In this document: in pieces, positions 11,402 through 50,243 of the stretch | How positions within the stretch are numbered: position 1 is the first letter of the stretch | Layout: every line of letters begins with the position of its first letter | DNA from: Bacteroidales bacterium | GTDB taxonomy: Bacteria > Bacteroidota > Bacteroidia > Bacteroidales > JAADJA01 | Assembly: GCA_026984135.1 (NCBI GenBank) | Contig: JALSSR010000090.1 | Location: 2,451 to 66,450, forward strand | Direction: 5' to 3' | Length of the DNA: 64,000 nt | The notes under the pieces: generated by a model | What the model saw: only the letters and a program-made list of their open reading frames with translations | What the model was told of the DNA's origin: nothing | The model's database searches: none | Translations under genes and position numbers: made by a program

Positions 11402-14400
11402 ATGAAAAATTATTTTCTATTCTTTGTTTTTATTTTCGGGCTACTGTCAAATTTGGGTTATTCTCAAAAAACCAATAAAAAGTTTGATGAACAGGTAGAT
11501 ACCCGTAGAGATAATATGGGTTATTGGATGAAAAAGGCGGAAGAAGGTCTTATCCCATTCAATCCCAAAATACCGTTAAGACCTGCCATATACAATGGCA
11601 GTACCATAAAAGCAGCCGGTGTAAAATCGGTTAATTCCGTTGACGTACCGGTTACAAGTCAAACCGATGTTACTCAAAGCGAAAATTCCGTTTTTGTTGA
11701 TCCCAACGACTTTAACTATATTCTGAACTCCAACAATTCAACGGGTTGGAGTGGCGGTAGTGCCGGCACACTTTACGGCGCGGATTATTTGCAATCGGCT
11801 GACGGAGGTGCAACTTTCGGAGGAAGTGTTCAGGGGGCAGGCGGAAGTAATTCCGGAGACCCTGCCGCGGCCATTAACCTTAGCGGTCGTCAGTTTGTAG
11901 GTTATATTTCATCAAGCGGCGGAATGGGAGTTTCATATTCCGATAACGGTTCGTCCTGGACAGCCAAAACGGTTTACAGTACCGGAAATCAGGATAAAAA
12001 CCATCTTTGGGTTGATAATAGTTCCACAAGTCCTTACGAGGGAAACCTTTACAATGTCTGGACGGACTTCAGCGGAGGTGCCAATGATAGGGAAATTCTT
12101 TTTTCAAGATCAACAGATAACGGCAATACGTGGTCATCAGCTATTAATATCAGTTCTGCCGTAAATGCCGGAAGTCATAATCAGGGTGTTAATGTTCAGA
12201 CAGGTCCCAACGGGGAGGTATATGTTGTGTGGGCAATTTATGACAGTTGGCCATCCGACGAAACAGCACTCGGATTTGCAAAATCAACCGACGGCGGTGC
12301 CACTTTTGCACCTGCAACACGCATTATTTCAAATATCAAAGGAATTCGCAACTCCGCCGTTTCAAAAAATCACCGTGTTAATTCCTTTCCCTCAATGGCT
12401 GTTGATATCAGCGGTGGTGGAAATAATGGAAATATTTACATCGTTTGGACGAATGTCGGAGTACCCGGAACAAACACCGGAACAAACCGTAGCGTTTATA
12501 TGATCCGTTCAACAAACGGTGGTACATCGTGGTCAACACCTGTTAGGGTTAATCAAGGACCTAATGTTGACGGTAAAGAGGCATATATGCCTTGGATTAC
12601 TTGTGACCCCGAAACCGGAACCATAGCAACGGTTTTTTATGACGACAGAAATACAAGTAGCTCCTCTTGTGAAGCTTTTTCCGCCTATTCACTTGATGCG
12701 GGAAATACCTGGACCGATTTTGTAGTTAGTGATGTTTCGTTTACACCTGCTCCAATCCCGGGCCTTGCAAGCGGCTATATGGGAGACTACCTTGGAATTA
12801 CTTCAAAAGCCGGAGTTATTTATCCCTGTTGGACCGATAATAGAGGCGGTATATATATGACCTACGTTTCTCCTTACTTTTTAGGTTTGAATGCTGCTTT
12901 CACAGCCGATGCAACGGAAGTTTGTACCGGGACTTCGGTTACTTTCAGCGATATGTCAACAGGAAGTCCCACATCCTGGTCATGGAGCTTCCCGGGAGGT
13001 TCGCCGTCAAGTTATAACGGACAAAATCCTCCGGCAATAACTTATTCTACTCCGGGGACCTATGATGTTACACTTACCGTTTCGGACGGTACGGGTAGCG
13101 ATACGGAGGTAAAAACGGGTTATATAACCGTGAAAAATGTTATTGCAGACTTTTCGGGAACACCCACAACTGTTGTTGTCGGTAATACGGTGACTTTTAC
13201 TGATAATTCGAGTTGTAATCCCACATCCTGGAGCTGGTCCTTCCCGGGAGGAACACCATCATCCTACAACGGACAAAATCCTCCGGCAATACAATATGAT
13301 ACGGAGGGCATTTATGATGTTTCGCTTACGGTTACAAAAGGCTCGGATTCAGATACAAAGACATATACCGGTTATATAAATGTTGTTCCGCCGGAATTCA
13401 ATATGACTAATGGAACCGTAACAACTTGTATGGGCAACTTTTACGATTCTCAGGGACCAACTGCAAACTATAATAACAATGAAGATTTTACAATGACTTT
13501 CTATCCTGCTACTTCGGGAAGTTTTATAAGGATGACATTTAATGAGTTTTCTGTTGAAAGTAGTTACGATTATCTATACATCTATGACGGAGAAAACACT
13601 TCTGCAACACAGATAGGTACCTACACAGGTAACACATCACCCGGAACAGTGACGGCAACCAATGCGGCAGGTGCCTTGACATTCAGGTTTACATCCGACG
13701 GTAGTGTAACTTATCCCGGCTGGTCGGCAAGCATTAGTTGTTATTCAAATACATCTCCTCCGATTGCCGATTTCTCCGCTTCAACTACAAGTCCCGCAAT
13801 AAATACGGATGTTGTATTTACGGATCTTTCGCAAAATATGCCGACCTCCTGGAGTTGGAGTTTCACTCCTTCTTCAACGGTTGTTTTTGTTAACGGTACG
13901 AATGCCAACTCGCAAAATCCTGAAGTTCAGTTTACCGCTACGGGACTTTATACTGTCAGCCTTACCGCAACCAATGCTTACGGAAGCGATACACAAACAA
14001 AAACAGACTATATTAATGCAATAACTTGTTCATATTGTGCTGTTTCTTCAACTGTTGCGGATGAAGAATGGATTAGTAATGTGCTTTTTAATACGATAGA
14101 CAATTCCGTTAATACAACCGACGGTTATGAGGATTTCACATATATCTCAACGGATATTATCCCGGGAAATACCTATACGGCAACAGTTTCGGTCGGATCA
14201 ACGGGAAGTTGGACCGAGTATTATGCAATATTCATTGATTGGAATCAAAACTGTGATTTTACCGATGCAGGCGAAAGTTACGACCTCGGTTCTGCCAGTG
14301 GACCAAATTCCCTTTCAACGGACATTACCGTTCCCAACGACGCTTTGGGAGGCGCGACAAGAATGAGGGTTATAATCAGATTCAACTCTGCTCCAACGTC

Positions 14401-15130
14401 TTGTGAATCATTTTATTATGGGCAGGTTGAGGATTATACGGTAAATATTGTCAGAGATCTCGACCTTGATGTTAAGGTGTTTCTTGAAGGACCGTATAAC
14501 GGAACCGATTTGAATACCGATCTTAATTCAATATTGCCTCTATCACAACCTTTTTCAGGCTTCCCTTGGTTCTATAGCGGAACCGAGAGTGTTGCGACAG
14601 TACCTAACGGAGATATTGTTGACTGGGTGCTTGTTGATATTCGTGACGCAGCCGATGCTGCTTCGGCCACGCCTGCAACAAGTATAGGTATGCAGGCCGC
14701 ATTCCTGAGAAACGACGGTAAAATAGTCGGTCTGGACGGCGATCCTGTTATATCTTTCTCAAATGCATCCGTTGCTAACAATCTTTTTGTTGTCGTTTTC
14801 CCGCGTAATCACGTTCCGGTAATTTCCGGAAATGCCGTTACACAAACAGGCGGTGTTTATACTTACGATTTTTCAACGGCTGCCGGTCAGGCTCTTGGCG
14901 GAGCCAACGGTCATAAAGACCTTGGCGGTGGTGTATGGGGAATGTTCTCCGGTAATTCCAACGGTGATTACAATGTAAACGATGCCGACAAGGATACAAA
15001 CTGGAAAAGCGAAGCCGGTATGTCGGGTTATCTCTCTTCGGATGTCAATATGGACGGAGAATCCAATAATGTTGACAAAAATGATATGTGGGTGCCCAAT
15101 AACGGCAAATCAAGCCAGGTGCCGCAATAA
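11402..15130 (+). CDS. Secreted BNR/Asp-box beta-propeller protein (sialidase-superfamily-like) with 2 PKD, CUB-like, PKD and GEVED domains and an unnamed dockerin-like C-terminal module
   Basis: I place the start at M29 of the listed ORF (MKNYFLFFVFIFGLLSNLGYSQ), because the TTG at 11318 lies within the upstream terminator. Asp-boxes include SADGGATF, SDNGSSWT, STDNGNTWS, STDGGATF, STNGGTSWS and SLDAGNTWT. The GEVED motif is YGQVEDYTVNI. No Por CTD is present and the protein ends ...NNGKSSQVPQ. Confidence 0.88.
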   Translation: MKNYFLFFVFIFGLLSNLGYSQKTNKKFDEQVDTRRDNMGYWMKKAEEGLIPFNPKIPLRPAIYNGSTIKAAGVKSVNSVDVPVTSQTDVTQSENSVFVDPNDFNYILNSNNSTGWSGGSAGTLYGADYLQSADGGATFGGSVQGAGGSNSGDPAAAINLSGRQFVGYISSSGGMGVSYSDNGSSWTAKTVYSTGNQDKNHLWVDNSSTSPYEGNLYNVWTDFSGGANDREILFSRSTDNGNTWSSAINISSAVNAGSHNQGVNVQTGPNGEVYVVWAIYDSWPSDETALGFAKSTDGGATFAPATRIISNIKGIRNSAVSKNHRVNSFPSMAVDISGGGNNGNIYIVWTNVGVPGTNTGTNRSVYMIRSTNGGTSWSTPVRVNQGPNVDGKEAYMPWITCDPETGTIATVFYDDRNTSSSSCEAFSAYSLDAGNTWTDFVVSDVSFTPAPIPGLASGYMGDYLGITSKAGVIYPCWTDNRGGIYMTYVSPYFLGLNAAFTADATEVCTGTSVTFSDMSTGSPTSWSWSFPGGSPSSYNGQNPPAITYSTPGTYDVTLTVSDGTGSDTEVKTGYITVKNVIADFSGTPTTVVVGNTVTFTDNSSCNPTSWSWSFPGGTPSSYNGQNPPAIQYDTEGIYDVSLTVTKGSDSDTKTYTGYINVVPPEFNMTNGTVTTCMGNFYDSQGPTANYNNNEDFTMTFYPATSGSFIRMTFNEFSVESSYDYLYIYDGENTSATQIGTYTGNTSPGTVTATNAAGALTFRFTSDGSVTYPGWSASISCYSNTSPPIADFSASTTSPAINTDVVFTDLSQNMPTSWSWSFTPSSTVVFVNGTNANSQNPEVQFTATGLYTVSLTATNAYGSDTQTKTDYINAITCSYCAVSSTVADEEWISNVLFNTIDNSVNTTDGYEDFTYISTDIIPGNTYTATVSVGSTGSWTEYYAIFIDWNQNCDFTDAGESYDLGSASGPNSLSTDITVPNDALGGATRMRVIIRFNSAPTSCESFYYGQVEDYTVNIVRDLDLDVKVFLEGPYNGTDLNTDLNSILPLSQPFSGFPWFYSGTESVATVPNGDIVDWVLVDIRDAADAASATPATSIGMQAAFLRNDGKIVGLDGDPVISFSNASVANNLFVVVFPRNHVPVISGNAVTQTGGVYTYDFSTAAGQALGGANGHKDLGGGVWGMFSGNSNGDYNVNDADKDTNWKSEAGMSGYLSSDVNMDGESNNVDKNDMWVPNNGKSSQVPQ
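14456..15130 (+). repeat. Copy A of a ~675-bp dispersed direct repeat encoding the shared C-terminal module
   Basis: It aligns by eye with 18269-18943. The last ~285 nt differ at only 7 positions. Confidence 0.9.
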
Positions 15131-15156
15131 AATTCTCAGACTTTTATAATTTAAAA

Positions 15157-15189
15157 GCGCTTCGATAAATTCACGGAGCGCTTTTTTTT
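15157..15189 (+). terminator. Rho-independent terminator
   Basis: GCGCTTCG (15157-15164) pairs with CGGAGCGC (15174-15181), including one G-U pair. It is followed by T8. Confidence 0.7.
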
Positions 15190-15191
15190 AT

Positions 15192-15199
15192 TAGTTTTG
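15192..15199 (+). promoter_or_regulatory. -7 promoter box TAGTTTTG
   Basis: This is an exact TAnnTTTG match 46 nt upstream of the ATG at 15245. It overlaps the TTG that the ORF track used as the start (15197). Confidence 0.45.
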
Positions 15200-15244
15200 C
15201 AAAAACAATCTCAAATATTAGTATTTATCACAAAACAAAAAACT

Positions 15245-18200
15245 ATGAAAAAGTTATTCTTTTTAATCTGGATATTGATCCCTGTAGCATTGTTTGCTCA
15301 GCCATGGATGAATACTCTTCCTCAAGACAAAATTGAAAAGGGCGATCTTACATTTTATGAAATACAAAAAGCTTTTAATGACTATTGGGAGCCGTTTAAT
15401 GTTAAAGATGGATATTATTATGTTAACGGTGAAAAGATAAAAGCCGGCGGCTGGAAACAGTTTAAAAGGTGGGAATGGTATTGGGAAACGCGTGTTGATC
15501 CCAAGACCGGGGCTTTCCCGAGGACAACGGCCTGGGAAGAGTTTCAAAAGTATTTGAAAAAATATCCGGGGGCTAAAAGTCCGTCCGGTAACTGGACAAG
15601 TTTGGGACCTTCTTCAACTTCCGGAGGTTATGCCGGACTCGGCCGTCTTAATTGTGTTGCTTTCCGTCCGGGCGACAATAATACTATATATGTGGGGGCT
15701 CCTGCCGGTGGTATCTGGAAATCAACGAACGGAGGCTCTTCCTGGACACCCATAGGTGACAACAATGCCTCTATTGGTGTTAGTGATATTGTAGTTGTGG
15801 CCGGTGCGACACCTGCTTCCGATATAATCTATATTGCAACGGGTGACAGAGATCATTTCGATACAAAATCCGTTGGGGTCCTTAAATCCACAGACGGTGG
15901 CACAACATGGTCAACAACGGGACTTTCTTTTACTGCAAGTCAGGGGAAAAGAGTAAGCCGTCTATTAATGGATCCGGCCAACACAAATATTTTATATGCT
16001 GCTACTTCGGATGGTGTTTTTAAAACTACTAACGCCGGTGCTAATTGGTCTAATATTTATGGAATATCATTTATTGATATGGAATTTAAACCGGAAAGCA
16101 GCAGTTATATTTACGGATCAAATACTTATGGAGATATTTACAGATCCACAAATGCAGGTTCAAGCTGGTCGCAGGTATTAAGTACATCATTGAACAGAAC
16201 ACAAATTGCCGTTTCGTTAAATAATCCCGGTATCGTCTATGCAGTTATGGGCAATTCCAGTAGTGGTCTCGGTGCGATTTATAAGTCAACCGACAGCGGA
16301 AGTTCTTTTTCTTTGGTTTATTCTCCGGGATTGAATATCCTCGGCTGGAATTGCGACGGAAGCGGGTCGGGAGGTCAAGCGTGGTATGACCTGTGTATTG
16401 CTTCGGACCCCAACAATGCAAATATTGTATTTGTGGGCGGTGTAAATACCTGGAAATCATCTAATGGCGGAGCCTCCTGGAATATTAGCAATCACTGGTC
16501 AAGCACCTGCGGTGGTTCTGCAACTAATGTACACGCCGATAAGCACTTTTTGGCATATCAAAACGGGACATCTACTCTTTTTGAATGTAATGACGGCGGA
16601 CTCTATAAAACCTCAAACGCTGGTTCAAACTGGACTCACCTCGGAAGCGGACTTGTTGTAAGCCAAATCTACCGGATAGGTGTTGCACAAACGGTTGCAA
16701 CGGATGTTGTTTGCGGCTTACAGGATAACGGAACAAAAAATATTTCAGGTTCAACATGGGATGATGTTCTTGGTGGTGACGGAATGGATTGTGCCGTTGA
16801 TTATACAAATGCCAATACCCAATATGGCGAGTACTACAACGGTGCTATGAGAAGAACAACCAATCACTGGTTTTCAACAACGGATATAACCGGGGGATTG
16901 TCGGGCTCGGCAGCCTGGGTTACACCTTATGTAATTGATCCCGGAAACCATAATACTCTTTATGTGGGATATCAGGATATTTTCAAATCAACAAATCAGG
17001 GAAGTTCATGGACAAAGATCAGCAACTGGAACGGGAATACTTTAAGATCAGTTGCAGTTGCTCCTTCAAACTCTAATTATATTTATACCGCCACTTCATA
17101 TACTTTATATCGTACGACAAACGGCGGAACATCCTGGACAGACATTACGGGTAGCCTTCCCACAGGTTCAGCCTCAATAACTTGGATTTCCGTTAAAGAT
17201 AATGACCCCAATACCATCTGGGTTTCTATGGGGCAATTTAACTCTTACGGAGTTTATCAAAGTACTAACGGAGGTGCATCATGGACGAATATATCTCCGG
17301 GATTGCCTGCAATACCGGTTAACTGTGTTGTTCAAAATAAACTGAACAATTCACAGATAGAGTTGTATGCGGCTACGGATGCCGGAGTTTATTATAAGTC
17401 GGGATCCGCAAACTGGCAGCTATTCAGTACGGGGCTGCCCAATGTTGTTGTTGATGAGATTGAGATATACTATAATCCTTCGGTACCCGCAAACAGTAAG
17501 CTACGAGCAGGCACATTCGGAAGGGGCCTTTGGGAATCCGACCTCTATACTGCTGCAGCCGCTCCCGTCGCTGACTTTTCGGCCTCACCCACAACCGTAG
17601 GTGTCAACCAAACCGTTATATTTACAGATTTGTCCACAAATACTCCAACATATTGGCATTGGTCTTTTAGCGGACCCGGTAATGCCGTTTTTGTGGACGG
17701 GACAAATGCAAATTCAACAAATCCTCATGTTCAGTTTGATGCAATGGGATCTTATACGGTATCACTTTATGTCTCAAACTCACTTGGTAATGATACGGAA
17801 ACCAAGACGGATTATATTAATGTTTCCGTAAATTATTGTACCCCTACATATAGTACCGGAACAGGTTATGGAGACTATATTTCCCTTGTCCAACTCGGTG
17901 ATATAAACAATTCCACGGGAGCACTTTCATCACCATACTATTTTTATTACGATAATTTGGTAACCGATTTGGCAGTCGGAACAGCTTATTCGATAACATT
18001 AAGTGCAGGTACCTATTCAAGTGGAAATAATATTTCGGTTTGGATTGACTTTAATCATGACGGAAGTTTTGATCCTTCTGAGAAACTTGGTAATGTAACA
18101 CTCGGAGCAACACCTGAAACAGGAACCATTGATTTTACGGTTCCTTCAAATTCAGCTGAAGGCATTACAAGAATGCGCGTTCGGGAAGTATGGAACAATA

Positions 18201-18943
18201 CAACTTTTAATCCTTGCAATAATTATGAATATGGTGAGGCTGAGGATTATAATATAAATATCATTCGTGACCTTGACCTTGATGTTAAAGTTTTTCTCGA
18301 AGGCCCGTACAACGGTACGGATATGAATACTGCTGTCAATTCTATTTTACCTCTTGCTCAACCGTTTTCGGGAAGTCCATGGAATTACTCCGGTTCGGAA
18401 AGTGTAAGCTCAATACCCGGTAGCGATATTGTTGACTGGGTGCTTGTTGATATTCGTGACGCATCAAATGCAGCTTTGGCTACGCCTGCAACAAGTATAG
18501 GTATGCAGGCCGCATTTTTGAGAAACGACGGTAAAATAGTCGGTCTGAACGGCGATCCTGTTATATCTTTCTCAAATACATCCGTTGCCAACAACCTTTT
18601 TGTTGTCATTTTCCCGCGTAACCATGTTCCGGTAATTTCCGGAAATGCCGTTATAAAAACAGGCGGTGTTTATACGTACGATTTTTCAACGGCTGCCGGT
18701 CAGGCTCTTGGCGGAGCCAACGGTCATAAAGACCTTGGCGGTGGTGTATGGGGAATGTTCTCCGGTAATTCCAACGGTGATTACAATGTAAATGATGCCG
18801 ACAAGGATACCAACTGGAAAAGCGAAGCGGGTATGTCGGGTTATCTCTCTTCGGATGTCAATATGGATGGAGAATCCAATAATGTTGACAAAAATGATAT
18901 GTGGGTGCCCAATAACGGCAAATCAAGTCAGGTGCCGCAATAG
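15245..18943 (+). CDS. Secreted multi-BNR (Sortilin/VPS10- or GH74-like double beta-propeller) protein with PKD and GEVED domains and the same dockerin-like C-terminal module
   Basis: I place the start at M17 (MKKLFFLIWILIPVALFAQ). There are at least 10 S-T-N/D-G-G-x-S/T-W repeats, such as KSTNGGSSWTPI and KSTDGGTTWSTT. The PKD stretch is ADFSASPTTVGVNQTVIFTD. The GEVED motif is YGEAEDYNINI. The protein ends ...NNGKSSQVPQ. Confidence 0.88.
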   Translation: MKKLFFLIWILIPVALFAQPWMNTLPQDKIEKGDLTFYEIQKAFNDYWEPFNVKDGYYYVNGEKIKAGGWKQFKRWEWYWETRVDPKTGAFPRTTAWEEFQKYLKKYPGAKSPSGNWTSLGPSSTSGGYAGLGRLNCVAFRPGDNNTIYVGAPAGGIWKSTNGGSSWTPIGDNNASIGVSDIVVVAGATPASDIIYIATGDRDHFDTKSVGVLKSTDGGTTWSTTGLSFTASQGKRVSRLLMDPANTNILYAATSDGVFKTTNAGANWSNIYGISFIDMEFKPESSSYIYGSNTYGDIYRSTNAGSSWSQVLSTSLNRTQIAVSLNNPGIVYAVMGNSSSGLGAIYKSTDSGSSFSLVYSPGLNILGWNCDGSGSGGQAWYDLCIASDPNNANIVFVGGVNTWKSSNGGASWNISNHWSSTCGGSATNVHADKHFLAYQNGTSTLFECNDGGLYKTSNAGSNWTHLGSGLVVSQIYRIGVAQTVATDVVCGLQDNGTKNISGSTWDDVLGGDGMDCAVDYTNANTQYGEYYNGAMRRTTNHWFSTTDITGGLSGSAAWVTPYVIDPGNHNTLYVGYQDIFKSTNQGSSWTKISNWNGNTLRSVAVAPSNSNYIYTATSYTLYRTTNGGTSWTDITGSLPTGSASITWISVKDNDPNTIWVSMGQFNSYGVYQSTNGGASWTNISPGLPAIPVNCVVQNKLNNSQIELYAATDAGVYYKSGSANWQLFSTGLPNVVVDEIEIYYNPSVPANSKLRAGTFGRGLWESDLYTAAAAPVADFSASPTTVGVNQTVIFTDLSTNTPTYWHWSFSGPGNAVFVDGTNANSTNPHVQFDAMGSYTVSLYVSNSLGNDTETKTDYINVSVNYCTPTYSTGTGYGDYISLVQLGDINNSTGALSSPYYFYYDNLVTDLAVGTAYSITLSAGTYSSGNNISVWIDFNHDGSFDPSEKLGNVTLGATPETGTIDFTVPSNSAEGITRMRVREVWNNTTFNPCNNYEYGEAEDYNINIIRDLDLDVKVFLEGPYNGTDMNTAVNSILPLAQPFSGSPWNYSGSESVSSIPGSDIVDWVLVDIRDASNAALATPATSIGMQAAFLRNDGKIVGLNGDPVISFSNTSVANNLFVVIFPRNHVPVISGNAVIKTGGVYTYDFSTAAGQALGGANGHKDLGGGVWGMFSGNSNGDYNVNDADKDTNWKSEAGMSGYLSSDVNMDGESNNVDKNDMWVPNNGKSSQVPQ
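18269..18943 (+). repeat. Copy B of the ~675-bp dispersed direct repeat
   Basis: See 14456-15130. Both copies encode an identical 94-aa terminal peptide. Confidence 0.9.
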
Positions 18944-18963
18944 TTTACTTTATTTGAAAATAG

Positions 18964-18995
18964 AGGTATTTATATTGAAAAAACAAAATACCTTT
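18964..18995 (+). terminator. Possible AT-rich terminator hairpin
   Basis: AGGTATTT (18964-18971) pairs with AAATACCT (18985-18992) and is followed by TTT. The loop is 13 nt. Confidence 0.35.
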
Positions 18996-19048
18996 TAAGT
19001 AGCTTTGATTTTTTTTAAGTTGTATGAAAAGTTGTGTGATTTGTATTT

Positions 19049-21040: not shown

Positions 21041-21043
21041 ATA

Positions 21044-21071
21044 TTTGGTTCTTACAAATTTGATAACTTTG
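21044..21071 (+). promoter_or_regulatory. Possible promoter for the response-regulator gene (-33 TTTG / -7 TAACTTTG)
   Basis: TAACTTTG lies at 21064-21071, 32 nt upstream of the ATG at 21103. TTTG lies at 21044-21047, which gives a short 16-nt spacer. Confidence 0.4.
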
Positions 21072-21102
21072 CAACAGCAACAAGTAAGTGTAAATCTTTA
21101 TT

Positions 21103-23270: not shown

Positions 23271-23304
23271 AATTCACACAAACAAATAATAAAAAACAAA
23301 CAAA

Positions 23305-26300
23305 ATGAAAAAACTTTTACATTTTACGTCAATGGCGATTGTGTTTGCCGTTATGTTTTCGGGCTTGGATGTTTTTGCCCAAACTCCCATTTCAGGGACC
23401 TTTGCAACCGACAGTACGCTGTCATTGGCACAAAGCCCTTATGTGGTTACGGGAAATATTACTATCCCCGATACGGTTACGCTAACTGTTGAGGATAATG
23501 TAGTTGTGCAATTTAACAGCAGTAGGAGCCTGACAATTTACGGTGATCTTATTGCCGATAACGCTACTTTTACATCTTCCTCCGGTAGCCCCGGTCCCGG
23601 TAGTTGGAACTATATATATTTCGGGAGTAGCTCCCACAGTGCCTCGGCCACGATAAACAATTGTACCTTTGAATATGCAAGGGGCATGATCATCACAAAT
23701 GGGACAATCAATATCAACGGCTCCACAATCGAAAACTTTTATTATAATGCTATTGAATGTTACGACACACTGAACTTGGTTTCATCCGACATTAACCTAC
23801 CTACTTACCACAGCTCTTATGGTAACGGTATTTTAGCCGGTGCAAATTCTGTAGTTGACTTGGAAACGGTAAGTATAACAGGTTGCAAGTACTCAATACA
23901 GTTATCGGATGTTTCTTCAAAAGTTACGGTTTCGAATAATTCAGTACTATCCGGTGCACAATACGAGGCAATCAGGAATTATGGCGAACTGACAATATCA
24001 AATACAGACATTTCCAATACAGGTAACAACTATACTGCTATTTATTGCTATACAAACTCAACTGCTAACCTCAATAATATAAATATCGGGCAATGCGGAT
24101 ATGGTATCCGGACCCAGGCAAATACAATGGTAACGATTGAAAACTCAACCATTGTTGGGGCTTATAATTATGCAATATATGCAAATGGTGATATAACAGC
24201 ATCAAATATAGATATTGACATGGCTACTTATCCCAATGGCGGAACCGGCTTTTATGCACTGGGTAATTCTATTTGCGACCTCGACCATATAAATATCCTG
24301 AATTGTTCTTACGGCTTTTATTTTAGCGGAAATACAACTATAACTGTTGATACAGCGACAATAACAAATGTCTATAATTATGGCATTTACACTGCGGGAT
24401 TCACTACCCTTAATTCTGTTAACATTGATATGACAGGATATAATACCAACGATGAATACGGATACGGTGTTTATTGCATCGGCGGAACTTTAACCGCCGA
24501 TAATATTGAAGTGATAAACGGGAATACCGGACTTGCCATGAACAATGATTATGGTACTCCTGATGTTTCATTTTCCAATGCTAACTTAACTCAAAATATA
24601 TGGCCGGTCCGCTATAAAAACGAGGCAAAACTGGAACTATCAGGCACAAACAACTTTTCGGGAAATGACCGGGAAGCATTTTATGTGCAGTTCCAAAATG
24701 TATATGATACTATAACATTCCCTTCTGTTAACATGCCATATTGGTTTTATTCATATTTTTATGTACGTGAAACCGGAAAACTTACCATAGGTTCAAATAA
24801 TATTTTAAAACCGAATAATTATTTTTATGTTTACGGCACTTTAATAGCCGATGCCGCACCCGGTGAACATATCTATTTCACTTCCCGGTACGATGACAAC
24901 TGGGGGGGCGATACAAATGATGATGGCCCGGCAACTTCCCCGGCACCGGGAAACTGGACAGGTATCCTGTTCTTAGACAACAGTAAAGACACAGAATGTG
25001 TCCTTGATAATTGCAAAATCAGATATGCCTCTTATGGTGTTTATACCGACAATGCCAGTCCCGAAATAGATAGTTGCAATTTTTCGTTTAACAATTACGG
25101 GGCGTATTTTCAGGGTGATTCCGATCCGGTATTTACCAACAATATAATCGGCTCGAGCGAACAAGTGCCCATTGCAATGTCATTTGAAGCAGATCCTGTT
25201 TTCCTGAACAATGAGTTTTCTTTTTCCGACAACGAATATGATGCCATCGGTTTAATTGGAGGCACTATGACCAATGATGCCGTTATCAAAAAAAGAAATG
25301 TAACGGGAATACCCAACGTTACCTATTTGATGTTGGATAATATTACGATTCCCGACACACTTACCCTCACAATAGAAAAAGGGGTAGTGATAAAAGCATA
25401 CCACAATTCCAATAATTACAGAAATATTATTGTAAACGGAACATTGATAGCGAATGGAACCGCCGACAGCCTGATAGTTTTTACCTCGGTAAAAGACGAC
25501 AATCATGGAAACCCGAATGATACCAACAAAGACGGTACGGCAACCTACCCCGCAAAAGGTGATTGGGGGGGGATTGTTTTTGCATCGGGCAGCAGTAACT
25601 CCGTGATGAACTATTGTGTGGTTAACTATGCAAATATAAATAATGCTCCTTCTTATTACGGCCAGAGTGTAACCGGATATGCCATTTCAATAATAAACGC
25701 AAACCCGACAATCAGTAATTGCGAGATAAAAGATGTGAGCAGGGGCATTGGCTGCTTTCAGGTTTCCGACCCTGTTCTTTCCGACAATGAAATTATAAAT
25801 ACGGATTACACACCTTTTTCCGTTTCAAGCACTTCCAACCCCGTGTTTTCGGGAAATGTATTTACCAATACCGGACAGACGGGACTGGGCCTTATTGGTG
25901 GCACTTTGAGCATAAACGGCACCATTGCAAAACGTGATGTTGGGGGATATTCCAATATAACATATGTCCTGCAAAATAGCATTACCGTTGATGGCGGCAC
26001 CTACCTCGATATTGAACCGGGGGTTGTTATAAAATCCAATGGACAGGGATTTGCCGTAAACGGAGGTTTTCGGGCAATAGGAACCGAAACCGAAAGGATA
26101 GTGCTTACATCCATTCGCGACGACAACTATGGCAACCCAACAGACACCAATAACGATGGTGCTTCGTCCACTCCTTCACCCGGACAGACAGGTTCAATTT
26201 ATTTTTATGAAACAAGCGATGATGACTATTGTAAGTTGGAGAATTTTGATTTCCTATATCCATCAGGTATATCTTGCAATAACTCCAATCCTGAATTTAA

Positions 26301-29300
26301 CAGTTCAAACATTTTATATATTAGCGGTACAGGAGTGGATTGTCAGGGTACGGCCTCACCTGTGTTAAAGCACCTTGTTATTTCAGGGGCAAGCAATACC
26401 GGTCAATATGGTATTTACTGTTCCGGCTCTGCCTCTCCGATAGTAGATACTGTAACTATTCAGAGTATGAATTATACGGATTCTAATTATGGAGGAAATG
26501 GTATTGCTTGTGCCGGTACATCTTCACCGGTATTTAATTTTGTGTCAATAGAAAACTGCCGTTTTGATCCAATAAAAATGTCCCTTTTATCAAACCCCAC
26601 ATTTAATGATATTAGTTTTATTGCAAATGGCAGTAGTGGTATCCGGTTGCTTGAGGGTTATTTAAATAGCGATGCATATCTGCCACAGCGCAGTATAGCA
26701 GGAATAACAAATATCGCCTATATTATTAATGCACTAACAATTGCGCAAAATGTAACTTTGACGGTTGAGCCAGGAGTAGTTTTTAAAGTAGATGCTAAGT
26801 CAGGGTATCATAATACTTATGACCAAATTGATATAATGGGTACATTTATTTGTGAAGGGGAAGAAAATAATAAAATTATTTTTACTTCTATTAAAGATGA
26901 TTCTGCCGGAGGTGATACCAATAATGATGGTAATGCTTCTTCACCGGCCAAAGGGGATTGGGAAGGACTAAGATTTTATAGTACGGCCACTGATCCGGCA
27001 AATATTGTAAAACATTGCGAAATAAGATATGCAGGAAATTCGCCTAACACATATGAATCACCTTGGTATTATAATGGCTATAATTCAGGTTCGGTTAAAA
27101 TCTTGAACGTTAACCCCAAAATTGACTCGTGTTCAATTGAACTTTCGGAAACTACCGCCTTCGGTATCTTTGGTACAGCATCGCCAACCATTTCAAACAA
27201 CAATATATACAATATTGATGGTTACCCAATTTATATGGATATGTTCTCGGATCCGGTTTTTAGTAACAACACCGTATTAAATGTAGGCGGGATGGCCTTG
27301 CAAATAAGAAACCAGAACTATTCCGTTTCCGATACGATCCCCCAAAGGAATTTTGCGGGATACAATAATATTACCTATTACGGCGGTGGCGGCACCATTG
27401 CTTTCGGTACAACTTTGACCATCCCGGAAGGGGTCATATTTAAAGAGGCTAATTTTACAGTAAGAGGTAAGATAAATGTTCTTGGTACGGAAACAAACCC
27501 GGTAGTTTTCACACGTCTTGAAGACGATGATTTCGGAAATCCGCAAGACACTCAACAAAATGGATACACAACACCTTCGCCATCAGGAACCGGCTTTACT
27601 TTCTATGATGAAAGCGATGATGCAAGTATTATTAATAATGCCATAATCCGTTATAAATCAACAGGGATTAGTATGACGAGTGCCTCGCCACAGATTACAA
27701 ATGTTTATTTTGAACATTTTAGTAACAGCAACAATACCTATGGTCTTGGCTTATCCCTAAATGGCGTTTCAAATCCAATCCTCGACAATTGCACATTTAA
27801 TGATACCCATATCCCTTTTTCTACTTCAATCCTATCGTACCCCGCTTCTACACTTAATAATGTTCTGACCGGAAATACCTGGAAAGCTATCCGGATAAAC
27901 AACGAAACACTTACCCAGGATGTAACATTGCCAAAAAGAAATTATGCAGGGATAAATAATATACCATACATATTTAGCGGTTATTCAATCGGAACAAGTG
28001 CTACATTAACAATAGAGCCGGGTGTAGTGTTAAAATTTAAAGACAATGCAAGCATCAATGTTTACAAAGGCTTTATTGCAGTAGGAGGTTCCACACCCGA
28101 CAGCACCATAGTTTTCACAAGCTATAAAGATGATTTTTATGGAGGAGATACTAATTCGGACAGTATAGCTACTATCCCATCATATACGGATTGGAATGGA
28201 ATTGTTTTTCAAAACGAATCGCTTGACCCATTATGTCAGTTAGAACATTGCGTTTTTAAATATGCAGGATATTATCAAACCTACGAACAAAACAGACTAG
28301 GTGCAATAAGAACTTACAGTGCAAGCCCTACTATCCAACACTGCTCCTTTACCGATAATTACTATGGAATTATTTTAAGCGGTGCATCAGACCCAGCGGT
28401 AAACAATTGCGATTTTGATAACATCCAATACAAAGCCATCAACAACCTTGACCAGACCTTTACCATAAATGCCGAATACAACTGGTGGGGCGATAATTCA
28501 GGTCCCGAACATACGGGCAACCCCGGCGGTACGGGCCAGGAAGTCTCCGATGGTGTGGATTATATTCCCTGGCTTGCCAACGGTACGGCAAACCCTGTAA
28601 TGGGCGATGTTAGCCTCAACGGTGCAATACAGGCTTATGATGCTTCATTGATTTTGTTTTATGTAGTTGACCCTGTAAACCACCCGTTGAATGCCACCCA
28701 GCAACTTGTGGCCGAAACCAGTGGGAACGGTAGTATAACTTCTTATGATGCTGCACTGATATTGCAATATGTTGTTGGTATTATAGATTATTTTCCGGCA
28801 GAGTTAGAAAGCATTATTCCTCCAAAAATCCCCGAAGGACAACTTAACATCGGAAACAATTCTGCAACTCTCGGAGAAGAATTTACTGTACCACTTATTA
28901 TTTCCAATATTTCGGATGCAATTTCATTACAAATTGATTTGGGATTCGATTCCGAATTATTGGAAGTTACTAATATTGAGACAACCGCACCTCAAATGAC
29001 CTCAAATAGCGGATTTGATAATCAATCAGGTCAAATAAAACTTGCTTTTGCCGGGTATGATAATATTGAGTCAAATTTAACAATTGCAAATATAACTTTT
29101 AAAGTTGTTGGAAATGTTACAGGCACTATTTTAACACCCGTTATTATTAATGAGTTTATAGCAAATGAAACAGATTTAACAGAAAATTCAAATCCGGGAT
29201 TAATTGAAATCTCCGGACTCGCAACAGGTTTGGATAACACGCAATCATCCAATCAAATTTCGTATTTAAACATCTTTCCAAATCCTTTTAAGGAATCGAC

Positions 29301-29526
29301 AAACATACAATTTTCTCTGAAAGAAAATAATGATGTTACTATTGTGGTGTACAATATTACAGGTCAAATGATCTATAATATAACAAAAAAATATAATACC
29401 GGTATTCACACTTTTGAATGGAAAGGAATGGATAATAAAGGCAAAAGACTTGAAAGCGGATTTTATTTTATAAAAGTTTCATCAGGGAATGATGTAAAAA
29501 TTAATAAAATACAAATTTTGCAATAA
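23305..29526 (+). CDS. Giant (2073 aa) secreted right-handed beta-helix repeat protein with six repeated modules, a dockerin-like domain, a cohesin-like domain and a Por/T9SS CTD
   Basis: A signal peptide is present. A motif of the form FTSxKDDxxGGDTNxDGxxxxPxxGDWxGIxF recurs six times between ~24860 and ~28210. Dockerin, cohesin and CTD are listed as separate features or coordinates. The CTD spans 29257-29523 (LNIFPNPFKE...GFYFIKVSSGNDVKINKIQILQ). Confidence 0.9.
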   Translation: MKKLLHFTSMAIVFAVMFSGLDVFAQTPISGTFATDSTLSLAQSPYVVTGNITIPDTVTLTVEDNVVVQFNSSRSLTIYGDLIADNATFTSSSGSPGPGSWNYIYFGSSSHSASATINNCTFEYARGMIITNGTININGSTIENFYYNAIECYDTLNLVSSDINLPTYHSSYGNGILAGANSVVDLETVSITGCKYSIQLSDVSSKVTVSNNSVLSGAQYEAIRNYGELTISNTDISNTGNNYTAIYCYTNSTANLNNINIGQCGYGIRTQANTMVTIENSTIVGAYNYAIYANGDITASNIDIDMATYPNGGTGFYALGNSICDLDHINILNCSYGFYFSGNTTITVDTATITNVYNYGIYTAGFTTLNSVNIDMTGYNTNDEYGYGVYCIGGTLTADNIEVINGNTGLAMNNDYGTPDVSFSNANLTQNIWPVRYKNEAKLELSGTNNFSGNDREAFYVQFQNVYDTITFPSVNMPYWFYSYFYVRETGKLTIGSNNILKPNNYFYVYGTLIADAAPGEHIYFTSRYDDNWGGDTNDDGPATSPAPGNWTGILFLDNSKDTECVLDNCKIRYASYGVYTDNASPEIDSCNFSFNNYGAYFQGDSDPVFTNNIIGSSEQVPIAMSFEADPVFLNNEFSFSDNEYDAIGLIGGTMTNDAVIKKRNVTGIPNVTYLMLDNITIPDTLTLTIEKGVVIKAYHNSNNYRNIIVNGTLIANGTADSLIVFTSVKDDNHGNPNDTNKDGTATYPAKGDWGGIVFASGSSNSVMNYCVVNYANINNAPSYYGQSVTGYAISIINANPTISNCEIKDVSRGIGCFQVSDPVLSDNEIINTDYTPFSVSSTSNPVFSGNVFTNTGQTGLGLIGGTLSINGTIAKRDVGGYSNITYVLQNSITVDGGTYLDIEPGVVIKSNGQGFAVNGGFRAIGTETERIVLTSIRDDNYGNPTDTNNDGASSTPSPGQTGSIYFYETSDDDYCKLENFDFLYPSGISCNNSNPEFNSSNILYISGTGVDCQGTASPVLKHLVISGASNTGQYGIYCSGSASPIVDTVTIQSMNYTDSNYGGNGIACAGTSSPVFNFVSIENCRFDPIKMSLLSNPTFNDISFIANGSSGIRLLEGYLNSDAYLPQRSIAGITNIAYIINALTIAQNVTLTVEPGVVFKVDAKSGYHNTYDQIDIMGTFICEGEENNKIIFTSIKDDSAGGDTNNDGNASSPAKGDWEGLRFYSTATDPANIVKHCEIRYAGNSPNTYESPWYYNGYNSGSVKILNVNPKIDSCSIELSETTAFGIFGTASPTISNNNIYNIDGYPIYMDMFSDPVFSNNTVLNVGGMALQIRNQNYSVSDTIPQRNFAGYNNITYYGGGGTIAFGTTLTIPEGVIFKEANFTVRGKINVLGTETNPVVFTRLEDDDFGNPQDTQQNGYTTPSPSGTGFTFYDESDDASIINNAIIRYKSTGISMTSASPQITNVYFEHFSNSNNTYGLGLSLNGVSNPILDNCTFNDTHIPFSTSILSYPASTLNNVLTGNTWKAIRINNETLTQDVTLPKRNYAGINNIPYIFSGYSIGTSATLTIEPGVVLKFKDNASINVYKGFIAVGGSTPDSTIVFTSYKDDFYGGDTNSDSIATIPSYTDWNGIVFQNESLDPLCQLEHCVFKYAGYYQTYEQNRLGAIRTYSASPTIQHCSFTDNYYGIILSGASDPAVNNCDFDNIQYKAINNLDQTFTINAEYNWWGDNSGPEHTGNPGGTGQEVSDGVDYIPWLANGTANPVMGDVSLNGAIQAYDASLILFYVVDPVNHPLNATQQLVAETSGNGSITSYDAALILQYVVGIIDYFPAELESIIPPKIPEGQLNIGNNSATLGEEFTVPLIISNISDAISLQIDLGFDSELLEVTNIETTAPQMTSNSGFDNQSGQIKLAFAGYDNIESNLTIANITFKVVGNVTGTILTPVIINEFIANETDLTENSNPGLIEISGLATGLDNTQSSNQISYLNIFPNPFKESTNIQFSLKENNDVTIVVYNITGQMIYNITKKYNTGIHTFEWKGMDNKGKRLESGFYFIKVSSGNDVKINKIQILQ
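28603..28782 (+). other. Dockerin-like duplicated segment within the giant protein
   Basis: The two segments are GDVSLNGAIQAYDASLILFYVV ... SGNGSITSYDAALILQYVVGI. Each is a Ca-loop followed by a helix. Confidence 0.6.
28840..29217 (+). other. Cohesin-like domain within the giant protein
   Basis: The sequence is QLNIGNNSATLGEEFTVPLIISNISDAISLQIDLGFDSELLEV...GQIKLAFAG...IANITFKVVGNVTG...GLIEISG. This fits the cohesin sequence pattern by eye. Confidence 0.55.
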
Positions 29527-29616
29527 GTATTTGTGAGTAATAACACCTTTAGACTCTTTGCTTTTGTTGCGTTCACCTTACCGGAAAGTGGAGGGTCAAG
29601 GTAAAAAACAAAAAAT

Positions 29617-31998
29617 ATGAAAAAATACTTTATATTGATTTTTGGAGCCTTCTTATTCGGGAATATAATTTACGCCTCTGATATTCAGGTTCGTATTCCG
29701 GACACAACTTGTGCTGTCGGTGATACAATACTAATTCCTGTTTATGTTGATAGTACTTTGACCGGAGAAAACGTTTATTCTTATCAGTTACAGCTGCAAT
29801 TCAATTCAGGATATATAAATCCTGTTGATATTATTATTGCAGGTACAATGACTAACTCCTGGGGCACACCTATATATAACGCAACTCAAAATAAAATTAC
29901 CATTGCGGCAGCAGGAACATCAGTTCTTTCAGGAACAGGGATTTTGTGTTATATTAAATTTAAGACGGTTACATCCGGCGGAACCTATATTAACTTTACT
30001 TCTTCTCAATACAATTTTTTTAATGAAGGCGAACCCTCTATGATTACTGATAATGGTTATATTTCTATCTCATCTTTGCCAAATCCGTACATTACCGTTA
30101 CACCAAACTCAGGATTAATAACAAAAGGTGAAACATTACAATTGTATGTAAGCGGAGGTACAGCACCATATTCATGGTCGGTAACAAACCCTTCGGTCGC
30201 CAGTATTTCCAGTACAGGATTGCTGACCGCTACTGCACACGGTTTTACAAAAGTAGTGGCTGAAGATGCAGCCGGCATAATTGACACAACAAATTCGGAT
30301 ATCGAGATAAGAGCTTTTGAGCTTTCGGTACACGATACTACCGCATGGCAAGGCAGCAATATCAGTATTCCTGTTTATGTTACCGACTTGACAGGATTGG
30401 ATGTGATTTCTGGATTTTTCCGTATTACCTTCAACCAAAACATCTTGGTCCCCGTAACTTACGAAACTGCCGGGACTTTACTGGAAACATCGTCAAATGT
30501 GGTTTACAACAATTCTTCACAAGGGGAGATTTCAATTGCCTTTGCAGGGACAACTTCCTTGTCGGGAAGTGGTGTGCTGCTATATTTGAATTTTGATGTT
30601 TCGGCCTCATACTCCGGCAGTACATGGCTGAATTTTTATGATGTAAGTTTCAATGAAGGGCTTTTGGGAAATTCTGACAATGGATATTTTTCCACGATCA
30701 ATTTCTCTAATATAACGGTTTCGCCTTCTTATGCAACACTTATTGCCGGCGAAACACTTCAGTTTTCGGCAAGCGGAGGGATTGCCCCCCATATTTGGTC
30801 AACCTCAAACAGCATAGTTGCAACTATTGATGAAAGCGGTTTACTTACTGCCCATAGAAGCGGGACCGTCCAGGTAATTGCTACCGATCAGGTAGGGGCT
30901 TCGGGTAGCAGTGGCAATATTACCGTTTACGACACTTATGTTACGATACCGGATGCTGAGGCAATTTTGAATTCGCAGTTTGATTTGCCTGTGTTGATAG
31001 GTGATTTACCTGCAGGGGAGCAAATCAGTGGTATCGAGGGCACAATTTCGTTCAGGTCGCCGGAGTTGACCGCCATTGATATAATAACCGAAGGAACCCT
31101 CTCGGAAGGTTGGACATTTGCAAAAATGTCATCGGGTAATTCTATCATTTTTGCAGGAGCAGGTACTAACCAATTTGATACGGCAGGAGTAATGTTTAAA
31201 GTAAGATTCCAGCTCAATCCTGAATTAACAACCAATGAATATGCTTATGTAAATATTACAGATTTAACTTTGAGTGAAGGTATTCCTTTACCAAAAATCA
31301 CAAATGGAAGTATTACAGGCAGAGCAGGATTCTACATAAATATTAAAACTAATCTTCAAGGTAGTTTCATTAATTCTGAAATGAGAACATCTTTAAATCC
31401 TCAATATGTTCCTAATTATCAACCCTATAATTCCAATCCATGGTATTATTATGGGAATGAACATTTCAGTTATTCTCCTATTAATGCCGTAGATTGGGTA
31501 CTTGTAGAACTAAGAGAAACTGCCGGTGATGTCTCAACGGCTACTACGTCTACACGTATTGCTCGAAAAGCGGCTTTATTGACAAAGAACGGAAATATTA
31601 CAGCACTTGACGGATATAGTAATCTGTTGTTCTCAAGTAGTGTTTCCGATAGTCTTTTTGTTGTTATTTGGCACCGCAATCATTTGCCTGTCATATCTTC
31701 TCAGGCATTAACTTTATCAGGCGGCATTTACACCTATGACTTTACAACAGACAGTACAAAGGCATACGGAGGAACTGCTGCTCAAACAGAATTGATACCG
31801 GGAATTTGGGGCATATATTCGGGTGATGCCAATGCAGACGGGACTATTGATAATAGTGATTATTTGCTTTGGAAAACGGATGCGGGTAAAAGCGGATATA
31901 TGCCAACGGATTTCAATCTTAACGGTGAAACGGAGAATGTTGATAAAAACAACAAATGGTATATGAATAAAGGTAAAACCAGCCAAGTACCGGAATAA
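29617..31998 (+). CDS. Scaffoldin-like secreted protein: cohesin - Big_2 - cohesin - Big_2 - cohesin - shared dockerin-like C-terminal module
   Basis: The signal peptide is MKKYFILIFGAFLFGNIIYA. Cohesin-like segments lie at ~29680-30069, 30301-30700 and 30919-31320. Big_2-like segments are ITVTPNSGLITKGETLQLYVSGG...LLTATAHG and ITVSPSYATLIAGETLQFSASGG...LLTAHRSG. The protein ends ...NKGKTSQVPE. Confidence 0.85.
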   Translation: MKKYFILIFGAFLFGNIIYASDIQVRIPDTTCAVGDTILIPVYVDSTLTGENVYSYQLQLQFNSGYINPVDIIIAGTMTNSWGTPIYNATQNKITIAAAGTSVLSGTGILCYIKFKTVTSGGTYINFTSSQYNFFNEGEPSMITDNGYISISSLPNPYITVTPNSGLITKGETLQLYVSGGTAPYSWSVTNPSVASISSTGLLTATAHGFTKVVAEDAAGIIDTTNSDIEIRAFELSVHDTTAWQGSNISIPVYVTDLTGLDVISGFFRITFNQNILVPVTYETAGTLLETSSNVVYNNSSQGEISIAFAGTTSLSGSGVLLYLNFDVSASYSGSTWLNFYDVSFNEGLLGNSDNGYFSTINFSNITVSPSYATLIAGETLQFSASGGIAPHIWSTSNSIVATIDESGLLTAHRSGTVQVIATDQVGASGSSGNITVYDTYVTIPDAEAILNSQFDLPVLIGDLPAGEQISGIEGTISFRSPELTAIDIITEGTLSEGWTFAKMSSGNSIIFAGAGTNQFDTAGVMFKVRFQLNPELTTNEYAYVNITDLTLSEGIPLPKITNGSITGRAGFYINIKTNLQGSFINSEMRTSLNPQYVPNYQPYNSNPWYYYGNEHFSYSPINAVDWVLVELRETAGDVSTATTSTRIARKAALLTKNGNITALDGYSNLLFSSSVSDSLFVVIWHRNHLPVISSQALTLSGGIYTYDFTTDSTKAYGGTAAQTELIPGIWGIYSGDANADGTIDNSDYLLWKTDAGKSGYMPTDFNLNGETENVDKNNKWYMNKGKTSQVPE
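31330..31995 (+). other. Third, diverged copy of the shared C-terminal module
   Basis: The sequence VDWVLVELRE...ALLTKNGNITALDG...LFVVIWHRNHLPVIS...GGIYTYDFT...GIWGIYSGDANADGTIDNSD...DFNLNGETENVDKNN...GKTSQVPE aligns along its length with 14456-15127 and 18269-18940. Confidence 0.75.
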
Positions 31999-32027
31999 AC
32001 GAACGGTTAATGAAAAGGAAGGAATGA

Positions 32028-50239: not shown

Positions 50240-50243
50240 GAGT

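Follow-up and report, generated by a model that had tools for sequence, protein, structure and literature searches.

We studied a stretch of DNA of 64,000 nucleotides (nt) from a Bacteroidales bacterium (contig JALSSR010000090.1), the whole of which is called the window below, and within it a run of seven genes at 11402–31998, here named g1 to g7. Their products combine cohesins, dockerin-like modules and a T9SS (type IX secretion system) C-terminal domain (CTD). The conserved core of this locus is a two-gene cassette, in which g6 encodes a beta-helix protein with a dockerin, a cohesin and a CTD, and g7 encodes an adaptor with three cohesins. By its domain content and predicted folds, the locus is a real, largely undescribed variant of cohesin-dockerin display. 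That it forms part of a non-cellulosomal cohesin-dockerin display system in a T9SS-bearing, uncultured Bacteroidales bacterium is a proposal that we hold with about as much belief as doubt. Such an arrangement suggests that Gram-negative bacteria equipped with T9SS may assemble proteins on their surface in the manner of cellulosomes.

The main profile scans were made with Pfam and NCBIfam, and GA stands for the Pfam gathering threshold. Labels beginning with L denote the loci of relatives and those beginning with P denote homologous proteins, while "tail" refers to a module of ~226 amino acids (aa) common to g1, g2 and g7. As an earlier note on this DNA had read from the letters, all seven genes lie on the + strand; the gaps between them measure 34–128 nt. 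The features of the core pair are as follows.

23305–29526, + strand: g6, a 2073-aa right-handed beta-helix surface protein whose C-terminus is a dockerin-cohesin-T9SS CTD cassette
28603–28791, + strand: g6 dockerin of canonical type, with calcium (Ca) loops at 28606–28641 and 28714–28749
28843–29214, + strand: g6 cohesin, adjoining the CTD, a candidate anchoring cohesin
29263–29523, + strand: g6 T9SS type A CTD (TIGR04183, Por_Secre_tail)
29617–31998, + strand: g7, a 793-aa adaptor candidate with the order Coh-Big_2-Coh-Big_2-Coh and an X-dockerin-like tail
29680–30072, + strand: first cohesin of g7 (Coh1)
30313–30702, + strand: second cohesin of g7 (Coh2)
30703–30909, + strand: second Big_2 domain of g7
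30934–31299, + strand: third cohesin of g7 (Coh3)
31324–31995, + strand: g7 tail, with Ca loops at 31825–31860 and 31909–31944 and the last residues SQVPE

In g6, Pfam recognised the beta-helix in seven stretches (E 1.5e-44). The earlier note had read a dockerin-like pair, a cohesin-like domain and a CTD in this protein. The cohesin was confirmed by Pfam Cohesin (PF00963) with 48 bits against a GA of 24.1, and the CTD by TIGR04183 (46 bits, cutoff 23) and Por_Secre_tail (38.9–41.6 bits). The dockerin held up in part: when the C-terminus was scanned alone, it covered positions 2–56 of the 57 of Dockerin_1 but reached only 19.5 bits, below the GA of 22.9. A local hidden Markov model (HMM) made from homologues matched it at 1e-31, and many homologues of the whole cassette carry PF00404 together with PF00963 and PF18962 in precomputed Pfam annotation. 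Against PDB sequences, the g6 cohesin gave weak matches to the cohesins 2xdh, 4ums and 1g1k.

The whole g7 protein scored 76.7 bits against Cohesin in two stretches and 67.2 bits against Big_2, with two domains. Coh1 alone reached 39.2 bits. Coh3 alone, which matches Coh1 by tblastn at 1e-8, stayed under the GA of 24.1 with 15.3 bits, yet it folds confidently: in a single-chain AlphaFold2 (AF2) model of g7, with a predicted local distance difference test score (pLDDT) of 88.6 and a predicted template modelling score (pTM) of 0.54, all three cohesin modules are confident. A Foldseek search of this model against the PDB returned the cohesins 3l8q, 4fl4, 3kcp and 6kgc_A, the last with a template modelling score (TM) of 0.73 on the target. 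Thus, the segments called cohesin-like by eye score as cohesins, with Coh3 below the GA, and those of g7 also fold as such in the model, the reading of g7 as three cohesins separated by Big_2 domains stands, and in general nearly every domain call made by eye was borne out by the HMM searches. No carbohydrate-binding module (CBM) was found in g7. A local HMM of Coh3 also matched segments directly before tails in other proteins (e.g., P0120 and P0068); these matches were disregarded, as the HMM was contaminated by pre-tail residues of non-cohesin proteins.

Synteny was assessed on the 11 loci that could be read, which come from about 10 genomes (the window, L002/3, L004/5, L006, L007, L009, L012, L035, L087, L088 and L089). 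In all of them the three-cohesin gene has, directly upstream of it, a g6-type gene for a protein with dockerin, cohesin and CTD, and the loci span Bacteroidales, Ignavibacteriales and Cloacimonetes. The earlier note had named a lack of synteny in any relative as grounds for rejecting the system, and this objection therefore fails. This indicates that the conserved unit is the g6–g7 pair and not the set of seven genes that the earlier note had treated as one system, although tail genes do recur nearby. At distances of up to 10 kb from the pair, the window has two extra tail genes and L089 has three, while L009, L012, L087 and L088 have a single one each. The core of g7, from Coh1 to Coh3, is 45–58% identical to its orthologues in metagenome-assembled genomes (MAGs) of Bacteroidales, Ignavibacteriales and Cloacimonetes. 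What follows this core varies among the orthologues: a tail (~793 aa in total), FN3 with a T9SS CTD (~842–956 aa), a Pfam-grade dockerin module (~765 aa) or nothing (642 aa). In the Cloacimonetes locus L007, a gene at 9146–9985 for a 279-aa cohesin and CTD-like protein separates the orthologues of g6 and g7, the latter of which has no C-terminal extension.

A second type of cluster, found in two other genomes (both Bacteroidales MAGs; L090 7226–16640 and L091 7862–16792), is unrelated to the g6–g7 pair and points the same way, as cohesin, tail and dockerin again stand together. Its genes encode, in order, a TonB-dependent receptor, a Coh…CTD protein, a cohesin-plus-tail protein, a Beta_helix_4…Dockerin_1 protein, another Coh…CTD protein and a 72–75-aa PID_CTERM protein, and the cluster is preceded by an OmpR-type regulator.

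The tail links g7 to the first two genes of the run, whose features are listed here.

11402–15130, + strand: g1, a secreted BNR/sialidase-like propeller with three PKD stretches, CUB, GEVED and an X-dockerin-like tail, without a T9SS CTD
14450–15127, + strand: g1 tail, a beta-sandwich of ~165 aa and a two-helix Ca-loop pair
14954–14989 and 15041–15076, + strand: Ca loops of the g1 tail
15245–18943, + strand: g2, a secreted BNR beta-propeller (F510_1955-like) with PKD, GEVED and an X-dockerin-like tail, without a T9SS CTD
18263–18940, + strand: g2 tail, with Ca loops at 18767–18802 and 18854–18889
14798–14812, 18611–18625 and 31669–31683, + strand: [WF][HP]RNH motif in the tails of g1, g2 and g7

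In g1, whose signal peptide, as read from the sequence, is MKNYFLFFVFIFGLLSNLGYSQ, Pfam found PKD_4 (103 bits), CUB (42.9 bits) and GEVED (68.7 bits). BNR_2 came slightly below its GA (30.7 against 31.4 bits), and the Asp-box repeats are readable in the sequence. The propeller of g2 is a different one: it scored 112 bits against NCBIfam NF045728 (F510_1955 glycosylhydrolase), below the cutoff of 175, and is accompanied by PKD and by GEVED (71.8 bits). No CAZyme family was found above threshold in these two tail-bearing proteins with either Pfam or NCBIfam. As claimed before, g1, g2 and g7 have no T9SS CTD that Pfam, NCBIfam or a local CTD HMM could match, and all three end in the same module with two Ca-loop-like segments. 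As proteins, the g1 and g2 tails share 91% identity, and the g7 tail is 43% identical to both; tail-against-tail tblastn within the window gave E values of 1e-53 to 1e-151, far past chance. The loops read DVNMDGESNNVD and NSNGDYNVNDAD in g1 and g2, and DANADGTIDNSD and DFNLNGETENVD in g7. Both carry D or N at EF-hand positions 1, 3, 5, 9 and 12, and across the tail family position 12 and the first residue of the second loop are invariant or nearly so. A weak tblastn match to the first 100 tail residues at 50828–50508 on the minus strand (E 0.002, 24.5% identity) is probably due to chance, since there is no open reading frame (ORF) of at least 150 aa there and the strand is opposite to that of the ORF at 50199–52145.

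At the DNA level, the tail regions of g1 and g2 (14450–15130 and 18263–18943) are 95–100% identical over the last ~420 nt and 63–87% identical over the first ~270 nt. Identity drops to random directly upstream of the tail and past the stop codon. This pattern points to a recent gene conversion confined to the tail. The same event could be read in a simpler way, namely that the seven genes are an island of unrelated secreted proteins, through which the tail spread by local duplication and gene conversion with no joint function. In most relatives the BNR genes and the two-component system are not conserved beside the pair. Moreover, three large secreted proteins with a T9SS CTD are encoded directly upstream (166–2481, 3240–7286 and 7440–11276; TIGR04183 29.6–33.6 bits; MAM-like, LamG_3, CUB and GBD domains), which makes the seven genes part of a surface-protein island of ~32 kb. 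However, mere coincidence is hard to reconcile with a g6–g7 pair kept across three phyla in 11 loci, or with tail genes that recur near it in five other loci. In addition, with just 43% identity the g7 tail is not a local copy of the g1/g2 tail. We therefore consider an island without joint function very improbable.

What kind of module the tail might be is indicated mainly by its predicted fold. A Foldseek search with the whole g7 model was swamped by generic multi-Ig matches and was uninformative on the tail, so the tail was modelled alone. The AF2 model, obtained with an 89-sequence alignment, is one compact unit (pLDDT 94.8, pTM 0.91), in which a beta-sandwich is followed by two EF-hand-type loops, each with a helix after it (residues 178–188 and 207–217). 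Type II X-dockerin dyads from cellulosomal scaffoldins account for nine of its 13 best matches in the PDB, the top three included (4u3s_B, 4wi0_B, 3kcp_A, 2b59_B, 4fl4, 5g5d_B, 5k39_B and 5m0y_B). The alignments to these dyads run end to end, over 224–233 columns, with Foldseek probabilities of 0.89–1.0 and TM of 0.56–0.66 on dyad-only chains.

Two further links to dockerins were obtained at the sequence level. Among PDB sequences, the tail profile had only weak matches apart from artefacts; these were in register and fell on two dockerin chains of C. cellulolyticum, 2vn5_B and 2vn6_B (E 0.27–0.29), and a match to adiponectin was set aside as a repeat artefact. The second link is transitive: the tail HMM matches the C-terminal module of five g7 orthologues (P0142, P0146, P0155, P0157 and P0170; E 1e-13 to 1e-19) in register over the second half of the sandwich and both loops, and the segment matched in P0142 itself passes Pfam Dockerin_1 with 27.7 bits against a GA of 22.9. 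On the strength of the model and these links, we conclude that the tail is a divergent dyad of an X-module and a dockerin-like module that fails formal Dockerin_1 membership on sequence. Its sandwich contains the invariant polar motif [WF][HP]RNH, which reads WHRNH in g7 and most of the family and FPRNH in g1 and g2, as well as other invariant residues (W, R and Y). The RNH motif together with the invariant W, R and Y suggests that, apart from the Ca loops, the sandwich has a site of its own for binding or catalysis.

The family to which the tail belongs is very large. An exhaustive profile search (E ≤ 1e-3) collected 14,580 clusters at 50% identity, 4,944 of which reach E ≤ 1e-30, with host proteins of 250 to 3,230 aa; no NCBIfam model matched the tail in g1, g2 or g7. 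There are at least 560 matches in GTDB species genomes. The best 80 of these come nearly all from uncultured Bacteroidales/Bacteroidetes MAGs, the remainder (three loci, one MAG) being labelled Chlorobiota, and up to nine of these 80 loci belong to one single MAG. Among 50 representative proteins, the cargo attached to the tail includes GEVED, PKD, MAM, LamG, subtilase S8, gingipain C25, M14 and PAD_porph (PPAD), and family-wide most of it falls into proteases, lectins and adhesin-like domains. A recurrent architecture has one to four cohesins ahead of the tail.

Some family members consist of little else. In many proteins of ~296 aa (P0010, P0026, P0029, P0066, P0003 and others), the tail is preceded just by a signal peptide and a small N-terminal domain that is conserved (…SWTLGE…LTQGFQQP, no Pfam match), with no obvious cargo. 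Other proteins have two to five tandem tails (P0241, P0242 and P0244), and P0242 is little beyond two tails.

These modules allow a mechanism to be proposed. T9SS would export g6 and its CTD would fix it at the surface, which would leave the g6 cohesin close to the outer membrane, in a position that may be likened to that of the type II cohesin anchored near the wall by S-layer homology (SLH) domains in Clostridium thermocellum. The X-dockerin-like tails would dock, with Ca2+, onto the cohesins of g6 and/or g7, and in this way would hold g7 and client proteins at the surface, among them the BNR propellers and, probably, lectin-like FISUMP proteins. The canonical dockerin of g6 most likely binds the g7 cohesins, as relatives in which g7 ends in a CTD or lacks a tail have no other pairing available. 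Acting together, the two kinds of contact could form a reciprocal or chained network. The strict hierarchy put forward in the earlier note, in which the g6 cohesin binds g7 and the g7 cohesins bind the BNR proteins, is one of several possible predicted wirings.

Several points weigh against a display system of this kind, and most of them concern the tail. On sequence, the tails of g1, g2 and g7 fail Pfam Dockerin_1: those of g1 and g2 have no Pfam match at E ≤ 10, and that of g7 gives a half-length, sub-threshold match (16.5 bits, E 0.0098). When the Ca-loop region of the tail was compared by hhalign with the g6-type dockerin, no relationship was found (probability 2.6%, one loop aligned), and the same was true for local cohesin and CTD profiles (probability ≤2.6%); the tail is thus not a close relative of the g6 dockerin. 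The E values of the Foldseek matches to X-dockerins are modest (4e-3 to 6e-2). Furthermore, the tail sandwich is much larger than the X-module of CipA and bears its own invariant motif, which suggests that the tail has a function of its own. The tails of g1/g2 and of g7 form one family, while the hierarchy would need two distinct specificities. Finally, the proposal does not account for the crossing of the outer membrane by g1, g2 and g7, whose signal peptide is plain and which lack a CTD, a point on which the earlier note is silent as well.

Alternatively, only the canonical modules might interact. The g6 dockerin would then bind the three g7 cohesins, with up to three beta-helix proteins per g7, and the tail would be a Ca-dependent glycan or envelope anchor without a cohesin partner, that is, a lectin- or CBM-like beta-sandwich stabilised by its EF-hand pair and holding proteins on lipopolysaccharide (LPS), capsule or substrate. 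The dockerin of g6 and the cohesins of g7 are indeed the only parts kept in every lineage. Because relatives without a tail keep both, it is no less likely that the contact between these two forms the conserved core of the system. The large sandwich with its invariant polar and aromatic residues (W, R, RNH and Y) resembles a binding site, and lower-ranked Foldseek neighbours include the carbohydrate-binding or adhesion beta-sandwiches 4iyk and 4jg5. The numbers also seem to fit an anchor, as ~14,580 tail clusters with many copies per genome face few cohesins in the examined loci, and the many stand-alone proteins of ~296 aa are hardly more than a tail. Nevertheless, an excess of dockerins over cohesins is normal in cellulosomes, where many dockerins serve few cohesins. 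It is also worth stressing that the full-length structural matches of the tail are X-dockerin dyads, which bind cohesins, that tail genes lie beside cohesin genes in two unrelated types of cluster, and that the fusions of cohesins with a tail mirror scaffoldin architecture. Taken together, an anchor without a cohesin partner seems to us a rather unlikely explanation.

A different set of observations concerns the position of the tail in its host proteins. In 248 of 262 family members (95%) it lies within 25 aa of the C-terminus and closes with the conserved SQVP[EQNDY]. It occupies the place of a CTD in g7 orthologues, in cargo of the type shared by P0062 and g0 (the third of the upstream CTD proteins) and in cargo classes typical of T9SS substrates. 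In the second of these cases, the pre-CTD domain of g0 (aa 1042–1192) and the domain in front of the P0062 tail are homologues (E 7e-20). Por_Secre_tail is also present in only 1 of the 50 representative tail proteins.

From these data one could assume that the tail is mainly an export or sorting module, i.e., a new C-terminal signal for T9SS or another outer-membrane route used in place of the type A CTD, with a Ca-loop pair of structural role and with cohesins that have other ligands. Replacement of the CTD by the tail, the coincidence of its cargo spectrum with that of T9SS substrates and the lack of any other evident export route for g1, g2 and g7 all speak for such a signal. Known T9SS CTDs must be C-terminal. 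In ~5% of members, however, the tail is internal, standing before FISUMP (nine proteins) or before ~500 aa and a genuine CTD, and this argues against an obligately C-terminal secretion signal. The latter architecture, with the tail near the N-terminus or mid-protein, was seen in P0245, L028 (1336–5370) and L063 (1006–5394), and it means that tail and CTD can coexist in one protein. The tail fold matches X-dockerin dyads, with no T9SS CTD among its top 50 PDB matches; 79 loci searched for a conserved partner gene beside the tail gene, on the pattern of PorP/SprF for type B CTDs, yielded none; and genes for tails and for cohesins occur in the same clusters. We consider it quite unlikely that export or sorting is the main role of the tail.

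Export and docking could also be combined. Tail-bearing proteins without a CTD might dock in the periplasm onto a CTD-adjacent cohesin, such as that of g6 or of small Coh-CTD carriers, and pass through T9SS as passengers; or the tail might represent a new class of T9SS signal. Although we regard this combined proposal as unlikely, it would, if true, make cohesin-dockerin pairing both a secretion adaptor and a surface tether for a family of ~14,580 clusters.

The proposed display system may include at least one more gene of the run. The remaining features of the locus and its surroundings are listed below.

19049–21040, + strand: g3, a TPR sensor histidine kinase with HisKA_2 and HATPase_c (Pfam)
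21103–21870, + strand: g4, a response regulator with Response_reg and a LytTR DNA-binding domain (Pfam)
21999–23270, + strand: g5, a secreted FISUMP protein (Fib_succ_major 124 bits, TIGR02145 126 bits)
32026–32049, + strand: terminator-like hairpin of 10 pairs directly 3′ of the g7 stop codon, a pattern match from a consensus scan
7440–11276, + strand: g0, outside 11402–31998, a secreted PKD/CUB/GBD/LamG_3 protein with a T9SS CTD

Of the 262 family members, 14 have an internal tail, and in 9 of these 14 it is directly followed by FISUMP (P0300, P0276, P0306, P0322, P0350, P0356, P0373, P0375 and P0243, all with cargo in front of the tail). The FISUMP scores are 108–129 bits in eight of the proteins and a sub-threshold 24.6 bits in one. 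One of the fusions has the order 3×Coh-Big_2-tail-FISUMP, and in L089 a tail-FISUMP gene (12631–15588) comes after the g7 orthologue. Through these fusions g5 is linked to the system, probably as a client or partner. FISUMP is one of the ligand-binding domains of C-type-lectin class, which diversity-generating retroelements target (PMC5758913).

The two-component regulator that the earlier note described as embedded in the cluster is real, as g3 and g4 form a complete kinase-regulator pair by Pfam, but in most relatives it is not conserved beside the g6–g7 pair. Out of about eight Bacteroidales genomes with a tail-type locus, that of the window and two more have a TPR kinase at no more than 10 kb from the pair, and the kinase types differ. 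In L002/3 a different, hybrid TPR kinase with an AraC domain stands beside the pair. In L087 a TPR kinase (His_kinase) with LytTR lies 6.5 kb from the g7 orthologue, which is the only recurrence of that combination. No TPR kinase was found within 10 kb of the pair in L004–L007, L088 or L089. Thus g3 and g4 are neighbours that may control expression, and apparently not a conserved part of the system. The hairpin after g7 likely marks the end of the transcription unit; a sigma-70 promoter scan gave only background level, the sigma-70 consensus being ill-suited to Bacteroidota.

Cohesin-dockerin assembly is understood almost entirely from Gram-positive cellulosomes. The closest working parallel to the locus appears to be type II anchoring in C. 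thermocellum, with the T9SS CTD taking the place of SLH. In C. thermocellum and Acetivibrio cellulolyticus, the X-dockerin of CipA or ScaA binds the cohesins of SdbA, OlpB or ScaB (PDB 2b59, 3kcp, 4fl4, 5g5d and 4u3s). As in these systems, which are also its best PDB matches, the tail is predicted to be a C-terminal beta-sandwich packed on a two-loop, two-helix Ca module. Like the X-dockerin of CipA, it terminates a multi-cohesin protein (g7), and the candidate partner g6 has a cohesin right beside its surface-anchoring domain. The differences are just as clear. The host is a diderm and the anchor is a T9SS CTD instead of SLH or sortase; the tail sandwich has ~165 aa and its own invariant motif, in contrast to ~95 aa in the type II X-module; and the tail occurs on presumed clients as well as on the scaffoldin. 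There are no cellulases, and the tail sequences fail Dockerin_1.

The locus is not a cellulosome, in which dockerin-bearing hydrolases for the plant cell wall are mounted on a scaffoldin with cohesins and a CBM, as neither CAZyme clients nor a CBM were found. The cellulosome-style label given to it earlier was an overstatement, because no recognised cellulase or CAZyme carries the tail here. Peer and colleagues reportedly described in 2009 non-cellulosomal cohesins and dockerins outside cellulolytic Firmicutes, often in one protein and with partners not identified; the dockerin-cohesin cassette of g6 would fit that description.

In type A sorting by T9SS (TIGR04183/PF18962), PorU removes the CTD and the cargo becomes linked to anionic LPS (A-LPS). 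Like such cargo, g6, g0 and the two other upstream proteins carry a CTD. The tail resembles the type A CTD in its position on homologous cargo and in its cargo classes. It differs in having ~226 aa with Ca loops, compared with an Ig-like CTD of 70–100 aa, and in its ability to be internal.

A cellulosome-like complex with dockerin enzymes and a cohesin scaffoldin bearing a T9SS-type CTD has been proposed for MAGs of 'Ca. Stygibacter' (Cloacimonadota; PMC8542988). Both cases concern a cohesin-dockerin assembly with a T9SS CTD anchor in a diderm of the Fibrobacteres-Chlorobi-Bacteroidetes (FCB) group, and both were derived from domains only; orthologues of g7 and the Doc-Coh-CTD gene also occur in Cloacimonetes MAGs. 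The 'Ca. Stygibacter' proposal involves Pfam-recognised dockerins and a 3,755-aa scaffoldin with CBMs (PMC8542988), whereas here we see a candidate client tail of X-dockerin type that has no annotation, and a compact conserved two-gene cassette in a Bacteroidales lineage. Our literature search found nothing on the tail family, on the conserved g6–g7 pair or on cohesin-dockerin display in Bacteroidales.

Two things are new in these data. One is a huge family of C-terminal modules, without a Pfam or NCBIfam model and with many copies per genome in uncultured Bacteroidales; the other is an X-dockerin-like architecture, as predicted from its fold, next to a pair of cohesin genes that three FCB phyla have kept. 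The locus also raises the question of how proteins without a CTD leave a diderm cell. If the tails do bind cohesins, they would offer new orthogonal cohesin-dockerin pairs for protein engineering, and one could predict what becomes of thousands of secreted "hypothetical" proteins in anaerobic digesters and sediments. For the bacteria themselves, such binding would amount to a second, non-covalent tier of T9SS surface display for proteases, lectins and adhesin-like proteins.

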